Origin: Phoronis australis
Taxonomy: Eukaryota; Animalia; Phoronida
DNA: 64,000 nucleotides
Assembly (NCBI GenBank): GCA_002633005.1
Contig: NMRA01000395.1
Location: forward strand, 316,757-380,756
Direction of reading: 5' to 3'
The stretch's first letter is position 1; every line of letters starts with the position of its first letter. Of the stretch, positions 15,601 through 21,600 are shown one piece after another. Position numbers and translations under genes: made by a program. The notes below the pieces were generated by a model. The model was given only the letters and a program-made list of their open reading frames with translations. It did not search any database and was not told the DNA's origin.

Positions 15601-18600
15601 CCCCTGGGGTTGCTGCAGCCTAATCTTCATAACTGGGCAAGATGGGGATTAGGTGTCGGATGTTATATCTGCACTGGTGAAGTCAGTTGTCATGGAAACG
15701 AGTTGTTTACAGATCAAATGTTAAGAGACATCAGTATTATATTAGCATTAAAAATGGTTTTAACTTGGCATGCAAGTTGAATAGTTTGGCCACATAGTTT
15801 GAAATGAGAGATATGTATCATCGCTGACATGAAGATGATGATGAGTGATGAAGTGAAACCAAGGTCTTTCTCACCAGCTGCTAAATCATTAAGACCTTCT
15901 GCTTTGTTTGAACAGGGACAGTGCGAAAGAATTGTGAAACACATTCACTTTGTTAAGTGGCCCGACTTTGGCTGTCCAAGTAGCACTGAGCTGTTACTCA
16001 ATTTTGTACTTAACGTTCGCACTCACTTGACTCGCGATTCTCGTGGACCAATCTGTGTTCACTGCAGGTATTCATGTTGCATGAGGACGAATTGTGTTCT
16101 AGTTATGATGCTTTTTTGCATTTTGTTTATAATTCAGAACTTTAACACAACACTGCTATTATGCTTTACATGTAGTCACACAATCGCCATATGAGAACTA
16201 TTACTATTGAATGAAATTTTAATTGGGAAGCATGGAATCTTGAACCCTTTTCTGGTGAAACAAATTTTTGATGCAAGTTAAGTTGTTTATTGTTTATTGT
16301 TGTGCCATTTGTTTTAAAGGTAAATACCTTATTATCAGATAGTTTGCATGATAGCAGTCATTTGTATCATTATGTTGTGAGTGTTGTCTATACTGTTACT
16401 TCAGCTCTATGTCTAGCATGATGTCACTATGACTGGCTCTCATGGCTCTTGGTGGTTCTTACCTGCATTCTACCTGTCTGTTTGAAGCGCATGTTCTTTG
16501 AACTACAAAATAGAGCCTAGTATGATTACGGTTGGTATTGACCTTGTTAAAATAACCTCAAGCGGTTATGTCCATTATTATGTTTTGGCGGTATATGTTG
16601 TGTCATTCCCTTGCTGTGTACTGTGGGTCAGCTGACACAACTAGCATCAGATGTCACCAGTAACGTTTGGACTGATTTCAGCTTGTTGTTTGTTAAAAAT
16701 ACAGCAAAGTTCAGCTTCTAAAAAACAGCAGTTTCAATTCTGTGGGAATGCACTAACTCTAGGACCCCAGGGTCTTAGACTAACCAAGGAGTGTACACTC
16801 CTTAGACTAACTGCGCAATTTTGGTTTAAAACAGGCTGTAGCCGCTTGAGACATGGCAGTATGACAGTTCACAGGATGAATTTGTTTTTAGTTATAGCCT
16901 CATTGTTAGATTATCAGGTACCTTTGTTTCTTCCAAACATTTGCTGTTGAGTCAAGGTGTCAATTTTATCATTGAGTCTCTGACTGGCGGCTTCTGGAAA
17001 CACGTCACAACTTGTGGAAACACGTCACAACTTGTGGAAACAAGTCCCTTCAAGAGGAAACAAATGCGTAGAAACAAGCCCCTACTTGTGGAAAAAAGTC
17101 CCAGTTCACATGGAAACACGTCCCCTCATGTGGAAACAAGTTTAAACATGTTGAAACAAGATGTGTGCAGATGGTGATGTTAGAGAAAACAATGACTGGG
17201 CTCAGTGAAGTCTGTGGGCAATGAGGAGGTCTCTTAAAAAGGTAGTGCAGGGTTGTAATGACAAATTAAATGCATAGACTGATTTTTGGATCGTGCCATT
17301 CTATAAGGTTGTACCAATTAGAGGAAAAAATCTTGTGATGACGGAGTAGAAACCAGGTGATGGTAGAACACGTACATTGACCATACCATCCAGTGAGGTT
17401 GTACCGATTTGGAGGCATCTTGTGGTGTTTTTATGTAACAGAGTCCAGGTAAAGGTAGAATACACATTTTACAGTGGGGTTGTATCTGAGGGACGCACCT
17501 TGTGGTGAAATCATAGAATCCAGGAGAATGTAGAATACACACAGTGATGGTATCATCCAGTGAGGTTGGACAGATTAGAGGGAGGAATCCTGTGGTGTGA
17601 CGTGAATGCAGTGTAGATGTGCCGCCCTTAGATCCATGACATTTGGGAAGCCTGTGTTGAGCACGTGGTGTTAAAGATAGTACAACTAAAAAGATGCGAG
17701 AGAGAAAAGTTTGAAGCTAGAGTAGATGATCTATGTGCATCACCAGTCATCTTTGTGTAAATGACATTATTTGTAGACTGGTTTGGATAAGGAAAGTAAC
17801 AGTCGCTTGTTGTACTTTATATGGATGTGGTTTCAGCTTGTTAAAGCTTTTGAAAGTGTTGTTGTTTACGATAAGAGCATCACAATTTACATTGCTCTGG
17901 CAGGAGCAAGTTTTGAATAAATTACTGATAGAGTAAACCTTTTCAGTGACTCAGAATATGTTTAGTGAAGTTCAGTTTACTGTTACAGCCTTTTAAGATG
18001 AATGATGATATGTTGAATAGACCAACATACAATGTGAGACAATGGAAGCAGCTCCAAGCAAATCATGAAATAGCATATCCGTATTTGTAATTATAAATTA
18101 TACACTTTAGTTCCAGGTTTGTAAATATTATGATATATTATGATATATTATGATATATTCGATAACAGTGCACTTGAATAGGGCCGTCCCGAATTACATG
18201 GAGATAGAACTCTATTTTATCCTGGAGATAAGAAAGCACTTGACCTAGTTTTGGAAATCAGGCAGATTTTCGTGTCTCTCATTAATGTCGTGAAGGTGAA
18301 AAATTTCAGATCACGCATCCCCATTTATCAAACTTTTTAACGTCGGAGTTGCAGCCCACAGAACATCTGCAGTAACATTTCATTGGCATTGAAAAGATGA
18401 ATAGAGTAATGCAACTGGTAAAAACTTGTAAAGAATCAGACAATGACAAATAACATGTGGAGGCAAAAGATGTGCCTGATGGATGTTTACAGGATTGTGG
18501 GTAAATACTGCAAGATTCAACTGTCACTGTATAATCTGGGATGGCCCTATTGAATTTCACTAAATAGCATGTCTTCAAAGCATGATGTAGTCTCAACAGT

Positions 18601-21600
18601 AATGCATTAGTGTAGGGGTCACAGCCTGTCACTTTGCTTTTTTGTGCGGCCTACTCCAAAACAATGTGACACATGGTCTCAATACAGTAAGATGTCTCCC
18701 TGCTCCAAAACAGTGTGACACATGGTCTCAATAGACCAAGAAGTCTCCCTGCTCCAAAACAGTGTGACACATGGTCTCAATACAGTAAGATGTCTCCCTG
18801 CTCCAAAACAGTGTGACACATGGTCTCAATAGACCAAGAAGTCTTTCTGCTCCAAAGCAGTGTGATACATGGTCTCAATAGACTAAGATGTCTCCCTACT
18901 CCAAAACAGTGTGACATGGTCTCAATAGACTAAGATGACTCCCTGCTCCAAAACAGTGTGGCATATGGTTTCAATAGACCAAGATGTCTTCCTACTCCAA
19001 AACAGTGTGACATATGGTCTCAATAGACTAAGATGTCTCCCTGCTCCAAAACAGTGTGACATATGGTCTCAATAGACTAAGATCTCTCCCTGCTCCAAAA
19101 CAGTGTGACATATGGTCTCAATAGACCAAGATGACTCCCTGCTCCAAAACAGTGTGGCATATGGTTTCAATAGACCAAGATGTCTTCCTGCTCCAAAACA
19201 GTGTGACACATGGTCTCAATAGACCAAGATGTCTCCCTACTCCAAAACAGTGTGGCATATGGTCTCAATAGACTACAAAAGTGTTTGCAGCCCCTGCTTT
19301 AATGGAACCTTATGCAAACTTAACCCTTACTGTGTCTTGAGATGCATGCATACATTTTCTTTAAATGATTTCTTATCATCGTATCATTTGCATGTATATT
19401 TACTCCTAGCAAGTAAGCCGTGACTCAGAATGATCATCTGAGTTTATGTAGTCACTTTTGTATGTTATTGTTGAGCAGTCATGTTAGTCAGTCTAAGCTA
19501 TCATATTGGCTCAATAGAGTTGAATAAGCATTGGTCTCGAATTAATGCCAAGAGTTGAAAGCACCATGCTCAATTGATTTGATGTTAGTTAAAAAAAGTT
19601 AGGGATCAACACTTTTTTGTCAGTTCTGGCTATTGAAGCTACCCCTTGCGGTCAAATTGTGTCTTAAAGTTTGTACATTACATGGAGCTGATAACTACCC
19701 TTGGAACATACTGTCTGTGATGCACTCTTGTTTGAGAATGTTTGCTCTGCTGATGGTAACCCCAACCATTGTGTGTGTTACACAGGTATGTTTACCAGTC
19801 CTGTACATTTCTGGCTTCACCTCGTCAATTAATATGCATGGTGTCTCATTGCTTGTGTCCAGGGCTCGTTGACACGTACCATCAAACATCTTAACTTCAC
19901 TGTATGGCCTGACTTTGGCTGCCCCGAAGGCACGACTGCACTACTTAACTTTGTTAAGGTTGTTCGTTCACACATGAAGCCAGACAGCTCCAGCCCAACT
20001 ATCATACATTGCAGGTACCTCTTGCTACTAAACTGAAATCTACAAAACCATGTCAAAGCATATTGAACCACTCTATTTATTGCATATTGCAAGTTATGTT
20101 AATGTTTGACCTACTGCATGTTGCTTTTACTGACATCTATTGTTAACTTTCAAATGGAATATTTCCCTCTTTAAAACCTAAAATAATTTCAACTTGAACA
20201 TCCATCTGAGCACACCGGGTCCATAAATTGCCAAATGCGACAAACATTTCAATTTATTGACTTAGTTTCATCTAGTACATCTCTTGAAACCATCTTTATG
20301 TTGTCGGTCAGACCTGAATTTACTTCAACTACTTCTAACCTTTTGTTATTTGTTCCGTGATGTTGTGGTGTAGCAATATTGTATGAAGACTACTTCACAT
20401 TTCATTTGCCATCCCTAAGTGATTAAGTCATGTTTCCTTTTGTTGCTAAGTATTGCTAAAACTATCTAGATTGTCTATTACGTCTAAAACAACACGAAAG
20501 CTTTAGTCTTCAGCATATTTTCAAAAGTTATTCACATGACCAAAGAACAGTTGCGTGCTTATGTTAGCCAGCTTACTTGAATCTAATATTTGTTGCTGGT
20601 TTGACTATGTTTTTAGTGCTGGAGTGGGTCGAACAGGAACCTTCATCTCTGTCGATAGACTACTGCATCAGATCAGAAATCATGATTATGTTGACATCTT
20701 TGGAATGGTGTTGGAAATGAGGGAATACAGATGTAATATGGTTCAAACTGAGGTAAGTATTAAATTACCAATTTCATTTCTCAGGTGCCTTTATCATGGA
20801 ACTTCTGGGTCAAGTCGACTTAAGTTAGATCGGTCTGAACCCTGTTTCATGAAACGTAAAAGACTACATGGGGTGGAGGTACTGCTGAAGGATGGGGTGG
20901 AGGTACGGCTGGCGGGGGGGGGGGNNCAGCATGCTATAAACATTCCCACTAAATAAGATTGGTCCAAACCTCGCCTGTCAGGGTAATCTGTGGGGTTTGA
21001 AAAATTGAACTACGTAGACGGTATTTATCCACCTTAGCTGAGTCGCGCTCAGCTCACGATCAAAGAGATGCCGCCAAGCTGCTCTAGTCATTGAGTCACG
21101 AGCGAGGATAACTGACTTCGCTCATGCGGATATGATCAGCTGATTACAATCTAGCCTAGCAGACTGTACTTTTTATGGAGAGAGTTTTACGTAGTTTTTA
21201 CTGTTTGAAAAGAGGAGCGAAAACAAATATGAGTACAACTTTGAATTTTTCAAATCGGCCCAGGATAAGAGATTTTGCAACACAGCAACACTCACGATTA
21301 CTTTCATTCGGCAGCATGAATACAAAAATATAGGACCCAAGTTATTTAGATTTTGGAACACATGCATTGCAATATTCAAAATACATTTATTATGAATCTT
21401 ACAAGCTGTAAAACGACGTTTAATTTCATTGTGCTCATTCATTGTCATCCGTCAAATCAGAAATTTCCGAGATGTGATCTGTGGCGTGCGCGTATGTGTA
21501 CAAAACACGTGATTGTTATTTTCCTGAAGTATGAAAATTAAGGAAATTTAGCATGCCGTTATTATTGACAGGGACACGATAAAACGAATTTGAATTTTGG

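Follow-up and report, generated by a model that had tools for sequence, protein, structure and literature searches.

We describe a tandem-duplicated pair of exons, A and B, in a receptor-type protein tyrosine phosphatase (PTP) gene of the phoronid Phoronis australis, on a 64,000-nucleotide stretch of contig NMRA01000395.1 (assembly GCA_002633005.1, positions 316,757 to 380,756 of the forward strand; hereafter the window, numbered from its first letter). Each exon encodes the segment of the catalytic domain that runs from the WPD loop to the catalytic cysteine, and transcripts join either one or the other to the same flanking exons. The pair is an unusually placed case of a known class, homologous mutually exclusive exons (MXEs), and it is real, expressed and conserved across phyla. 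Our overall reading, which we consider probable, is that the two exons are spliced either-or in a single-domain R3-type receptor phosphatase, that their duplication likely predates the split of brachiopods and molluscs, and that they likely yield two active enzymes whose loop closure is tuned differently. The pair and its immediate flanks are as follows.

14526..14648, plus strand: shared upstream exon with the KCERYWP motif; its donor is joined to A or B in reads
15916..16067, plus strand: alternative exon A, encoding a beta strand, the WPD loop, helix alpha3, a strand and the catalytic Cys; His175/Asn193 type (PTP1B numbering)
19863..20014, plus strand: alternative exon B, encoding the same segment as exon A; Lys196 type, the major form in three raw RNA runs
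20617..20752, plus strand: shared downstream exon with the rest of the P-loop (SAGVGR) and the start of the Q-loop (tblastn, reads)

Both alternative exons are 152 nt long, with AG and GT ends, phase 0-2 and open frames; WPDFGCP is intact in each, all as an initial annotation made from the letters alone had described, and each closes on His-Cys plus two bases of a Ser codon. Its figure of 26 identical residues out of 50 was also obtained on recounting (81 of the 152 bases), with different codons at 16 of the 26 identical residues and matching third positions in 18 of the 50 codons. Between A and B, dN is 0.50 and dS is saturated (NG86). The two homologous exons lie next to each other, agree in length and phase and both map to PTP1B 169–215, and a profile of the segment found exactly two significant matches in the window (E values of 3.5e-24 and 1e-23); a third copy in the window is rejected, the next best match having an E value of 0.4. 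The flanking exons, 14526–14648 and 20617–20752, are single-copy. A receptor phosphatase of the brachiopod Lingula, found via exon B, maps to one run of exons in which the A/B segment alone is doubled.

Transcription was followed in three raw stranded runs from one study (X2, X3 and X4) and in an older contig set from another (X1); about 18–19% of each raw run was read, and two stretches, 14200–18600 and 19400–20900, were examined separately. The upstream exon was joined to A by 11 reads (2, 7 and 2 in the three raw runs; first stretch) and to B by 32, counted as loose ends before B that match the upstream exon (14, 9 and 9, agreement 1.0; second stretch); among the ends listed for the first stretch, those running past the upstream exon also read into B (16 in X3, 10 in X4, and an X1 contig). 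Joints to the downstream exon numbered 39 from B (24, 10 and 5; second stretch) and 18 from A, the latter via loose ends before the downstream exon (14 in X2, agreement 0.96, and 4 in X4; also an X1 contig), and loose ends past A in the first stretch matched the downstream exon in X4 (6 reads) and in an X1 contig. By loose-end consensus in the portion of the runs that was read, none of the 32 reads entering B carried an A–B join, and rare skip or A–B products could lie below the level of that consensus. All four junctions that the initial annotation had singled out are thus present in reads, as its call of a mutually exclusive pair anticipated. A and B are both used, B more often: read depth gives a rough A share of 0.27, 0.33 and 0.40 in the three raw runs. 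One further difference was seen within exon A, at window position 16015, where 4 of 6 reads of X4 carry A in place of G (0 in X2 and X3); it is likely an allele.

The reading frame sets the two single-exon forms apart from the other combinations. In an exon model whose last exon is inferred, A alone or B alone leaves the frame open up to the normal stop at residue 306; skipping both brings a premature stop at residue 183 and including both brings one at residue 223, which agrees with the earlier observation that the pair keeps an open frame only as a choice of one, here with both exons expressed between the same flanks in two studies. Under the usual 50-nt rule, stops lying far upstream of the last junction make transcripts targets of nonsense-mediated decay, and the skip and A+B products, with their stops 179 and 363 nt upstream of the last junction, would be targets for that reason. 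Exclusivity would then be enforced by nonsense-mediated decay together with regulated splice-site choice, with a trans-acting choice plus frame-based decay as the default explanation. Pairing between docking and selector sequences, raised earlier as something to look for, did not rise above shuffles: in seven region pairs within the window's introns, 2 of 20 shuffles did at least as well as the best duplex, and the longest inverted repeats were 70–85% complementary. Steric hindrance is rejected, the intron from A to B being 3,795 nt long against a donor-to-branch-point limit of about 50 nt; before B lies an AG-free zone of 62 nt with a branch-point-like motif about 31 nt upstream. Incompatibility of U2 and U12 introns is likewise rejected, since every intron is GT-AG and the donors (GTGAGT, GTATTC and GTACCT) depart from the U12 donor consensus. 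The intron between A and B also holds a 49-bp tandem array (18650–19273, 12.8 copies) and a dispersed repeat (18170–18560), the latter with arms that are 73% complementary and attracting reads from elsewhere on both strands.

The same swap occurs in other species. Among 21 protein clusters looked up, 11 had at least two members with the catalytic segment (8 lophotrochozoan, 3 others), and 3 of the 8 lophotrochozoan clusters (Lingula, Saccostrea and Mercenaria) contain isoforms that exchange this segment between flanks identical within each pair. Lingula isoforms X1 and X3 differ from X2 only at residues 1747–1792, besides an unrelated indel on the N-terminal side of X3; in Saccostrea the difference between X2 and X1/X3 is confined to the same segment; and in Mercenaria X2 departs from X1 in that segment too, beginning at the first residue of the exon. 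Lingula had been picked via exon B, and the Saccostrea and Mercenaria cases were not selected for the swap; a protein search with exon A returned no match, which is weak as evidence. The swap isoforms are already in RefSeq, unremarked. An old duplication that has been kept, as the initial annotation proposed, is supported by these isoforms; the exclusion of a duplication private to the window's lineage is a narrow one.

That narrowness is seen in the topology tests, in which forcing window A and B to be sisters gave a p-AU of 0.041 and forcing the Lingula pair gave 0.039, both narrowly rejected. Window A is nearer to Lingula X1 (score of 180 versus 167) and window B to Lingula X2 (197 versus 147), the assignment of A with A and B with B was the best of 8 (1775 versus 1743 for the next), and a single A|B split was not rejected (p-AU 0.149). 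A tree of 46 rows, whose single-version rows received their A or B labels post hoc from scores, placed the 12 B-type lophotrochozoan rows on one side of a branch (39/86) and the A-type and arthropod exons together on one side (70/90). Uniting every lophotrochozoan exon in a single clade was not rejected (0.32). Together, these comparisons give fair support to an origin shared with Lingula, and they suggest that a single origin including the bivalves is likely, as is a duplication predating the brachiopod–mollusc split, which is of Cambrian age.

An older date is possible, and we offer it tentatively, as something short of probable: the duplication may come from the protostome stem, B being the retained bilaterian-type core and A an innovation of protostomes that chelicerates and myriapods also have. 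Of 50 residues, amphioxus has 34 in common with Lingula B and 21 with Lingula A, and all eight chelicerate and myriapod orthologs sampled score as A-type. If this were true, the allosteric wiring of the active site would have been switched by splicing for more than half a billion years, and arthropods would have lost B or carry it unannotated. A different history, in which the same exon was duplicated in the ancestor of the window and Lingula lineages and again in bivalves, with the positional match being convergent, seems unlikely to us. It draws on the within-species bivalve pairs, which were not rejected (p-AU 0.256 and 0.257), on an 8-row tree in which A and B each need 2 changes, and on Mercenaria X1, whose scores to A and B are nearly equal (−2.3). 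However, three positions (His175, Asn193 and Lys196) divide the bivalve pairs just as they divide those of the window and Lingula, and the grouping of the 12 B-type rows in the larger tree, weak as it is and with single-version labels assigned by score, also runs against repeated duplication.

Residues 5–50 of exon A align to PTP1B 169–215 and residues 4–50 of exon B to PTP1B 168–215. This segment comprises, in order, a strand, the WPD loop, helix alpha3, a surface loop and a second strand that leads to the nucleophile. Neither Trp-Pro-Asp nor His-Cys varies between A and B, the catalytic residues are identical, and the P-loop downstream is shared. Across the four pairs (window, Lingula, Saccostrea and Mercenaria), His occupies position 175 in all four A exons and in no B exon, Asn occupies position 193 in all four A exons and in one B exon, and Lys occupies position 196 in no A exon and in all four B exons. 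The swap would exchange residues flanking the WPD loop, residues lining alpha3 (the allosteric helix of PTP1B) and the loop after alpha3. In PTP1B, according to PMC6039181, Asn193, Phe196 and Lys197 on alpha3 belong to an allosteric network coupled to WPD-loop opening, and chimeras of the WPD loop are described in PMC9682893 as altered in rate and pH dependence. Because the swap changes WPD-flanking and alpha3 residues, the isoforms would be expected to differ in tuning and not in chemistry (in how fast they turn over, in their pH profile, in their allosteric coupling or in the docking of partners), and A and B would give two active enzymes that differ in loop dynamics or in allosteric input.

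An alternative that we regard as improbable is that one isoform has low activity or serves as a scaffold, so that the swap mainly alters a binding surface or dampens signalling and tunes catalysis little. The surface loop after alpha3 is indeed the most variable part, its length differing in bivalve B-type exons, and the variable residues of published MXEs tend towards interaction sites (PMC7954323, in the part available). Yet every catalytic motif is kept in A and B, and the differences that are stable across lineages are those at 175, 193 and 196, adjoining the WPD loop and on alpha3. 

The pair itself amounts to a natural chimera experiment, with two WPD-loop/alpha3 sequences, separate since at least the Lingula split, set on an otherwise identical scaffold, and the control that non-catalytic residues exert on PTP rates and allostery, probed so far by engineered chimeras, becomes directly testable.

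A redox switch, in which extra cysteines of exon A change its sensitivity to oxidation, was suggested in the initial annotation and appears very improbable. Exon A does exceed B by two Cys, and, as was then noted, one of these precedes the nucleophile by three residues; neither is conserved as a trait of A. The Cys at −3 occurs in window A and in the B-type exon of Lingula, so that it is not the conserved difference between A and B, and Lingula, Saccostrea and Mercenaria have Leu, Val and Leu at this site of their A-type exons; nor is the other extra Cys conserved. Residues three apart in a beta strand face opposite sides, which would place the −3 Cys and the nucleophile on opposite faces of the strand. 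A further cysteine, Cys184 in the WPD loop, is present in 7 of the 8 paired exons, those of the window both included, and hence is not switched. In nearly all members of this protostome lineage it is found in both exon types (Val in the amphioxus-side and Ptp10D-like rows), and it may be a better redox candidate than the Cys flagged at first. That one exon is a dead duplicate, or belongs to a separate paralog or a misassembled haplotype, has low A/B identity and nothing more in its favour and next to no chance of being right, refuted as it is by reads from two studies that join both exons to the same single-copy flanks, with the same swap in three other species.

Several points weigh against our overall reading. 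The statements on skipping and A–B joins come from the consensus of loose ends, taken separately on two stretches, and not from direct counts, and in X3 the 10 short ends before the downstream exon read mostly as the tail of B, leaving the joint from A to the downstream exon indistinct in that run. The three raw runs belong to one study, and an A share spanning 0.27–0.40 is no strong switch; nor was a cis mechanism for exclusivity found among intronic pairing, steric hindrance and U12 splicing. The swaps in other species are automatically annotated isoforms, not genomic exons, and a single version is present in 5 of the 8 lophotrochozoan clusters (Octopus, Babylonia, Dreissena, Potamilus and one Mytilus locus) and in all three others (Limulus, Trichonephila and Branchiostoma), which may reflect loss or incomplete annotation. 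The trees are weak, with 50 columns only, and leave the bivalve pairs standing. The case for two enzymes is built on sequence and RNA reads.

The gene itself is a single-domain R3-type receptor tyrosine phosphatase. It has a single cytoplasmic PTP domain, the modelled frame ending soon after the domain and the window holding no further match to the WPD segment; its orthologs have one PF00102 stretch with FN3 repeats and PTP_tm (in that of Lingula, for example, 12 FN3 stretches and PTP_tm accompany a single PTP domain), and the C-terminal YxN motif is present as IYEN in exon 24704–24788. This is the R3 architecture, YxN tail included, that the available text of PMC5336234 describes, and R3 phosphatases (PTPRB/J/H/O/Q and Drosophila Ptp10D) resemble the window gene in their single PTP domain and YxN tail. 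Tblastn found no exons for an FN3 ectodomain or transmembrane segment in the 64 kb, so the 5′ part of the gene likely lies beyond the window.

In the shared exons (177 columns), identity of the window protein is 80% to that of Lingula and 59–72% to 26 others, in an ortholog set that leaves out the results obtained with the Lingula domain as query, among which two-domain LAR-type proteins predominated. The shared-exon tree places it within a 22-row protostome group (94/93) with molluscs, chelicerates and myriapods, apart from the amphioxus-side proteins, and a separate Ptp10D-like group (100/99) excludes it; a Ptp10D ortholog is rejected on these separate clades. Against Drosophila Ptp10D (3s3e), P0177 of the Ptp10D-like group scores 444 bits and Mercenaria P0125 scores 317. 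PMC5336234, in the part available, recognizes one R3 type in protostomes besides fly PTP52F, whereas the group of the window gene stands apart from the Ptp10D-like one; this suggests that protostomes have, next to Ptp10D, a second R3 lineage, which that text does not separate. A further well-supported R3-like group (P0216, P0245, P0248 and P0156) has Trp-Lys-Asp or Trp-Leu-Asp in place of WPD and keeps the catalytic Cys.

The remaining exons of the gene in the window are these.

3708..3789, plus strand: shared exon encoding either juxtamembrane sequence or the beginning of the PTP region (tblastn with orthologs, AG/GT ends)
6353..6443, plus strand: shared exon with the KNRY phosphotyrosine-recognition motif (tblastn with orthologs, AG/GT ends)
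13939..14015, plus strand: shared exon with the DYINA motif (tblastn; its 3′ end matches the loose end before 14219, with 32 reads in X2 and an X1 contig)
14219..14353, plus strand: shared exon with the QGP motif (joint to 14526 in 22, 31 and 12 reads)
24704..24788, plus strand: shared exon with the end of the Q-loop and the YxN tail motif (loose ends after 20753 in 35, 10 and 19 reads)
31580..31620, plus strand: likely last coding exon with the stop codon, followed by the 3′ untranslated region (placed by its AG acceptor and a stop in frame)

At 14002–14157, the 3′ end of the DYINA exon and its donor recur within a 63-bp unit present in 2.5 copies, which creates spare GT donors; the loose ends of reads before 14219 agree with the first donor. 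The introns hold retroelements on the minus strand: a DIRS-like element between the KNRY and DYINA exons (8030–11644; tyrosine recombinase PF00589 and reverse transcriptase PF00078) and a Gypsy-like element in pieces in the last intron (25366–29340; RVT_1, integrase zinc-binding and rve). Also on the minus strand, at about 35900–46000, a HECT ubiquitin ligase gene (PF00632 at 45644–46000) is directed towards the 3′ end of the phosphatase gene.

With regard to known systems, the literature search, to which subscription journals were mostly outside scope, found no published account of this exon pair, and the initial annotation's statement that it knew of no MXE covering the PTP catalytic motif holds for that literature, for a human catalogue of tandem exon duplications and for human PTPR entries. 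MXEs that touch catalytic sites are rare, with 9 events in one multi-genome survey (PMC7954323, as far as its available text goes), the supplement of which gave 0 matches, a weak result with no positive control; the term 'mutually' had 0 matches in the available text of the R3 evolution paper (PMC5336234). The accessible parts of the human catalogue (PMC8373072, PMC9741552) contain 0 PTPR or PTPN genes, with the controls MAPK14 and PKM present, and the phosphatase that they do contain, DUSP13, is a two-protein event, unlike the exon pair here. Human receptor phosphatase candidates fill 7 PTPR rows in what is available of Hatje 2017 (PMC5740500), and none of these spans the WPD loop to the Cys: the PTPRS pair concerns an exon of FN3 type, which maps onto structures of the ectodomain, the PTPRM entry sets an exon after the QGP motif beside a barely similar intronic candidate, and the PTPRN2 entries are exons of 17–20 residues.

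Further likenesses come from other proteins, again as given in the available parts of the sources. The coq-2 exon switch (PMC7434440) also concerns a spliced enzyme, with altered substrate use and with annelids and molluscs among its keywords; it is a different enzyme for which function and regulation have been shown, whereas the pair described here is known from sequence and reads. Human tandem exon duplication substitutions (PMC8373072, PMC9741552) are of the same class, an old duplicate in the same frame used either-or. The kinase-domain MXEs of Mapk14/p38 (CSBP1/2), Mapk9 and Mapk10 (PMC1431701) are, as here, exclusive exons within a catalytic domain, and what distinguishes the Phoronis pair from them is that the exchanged exon belongs to a phosphatase and bears both the general acid and the nucleophile.

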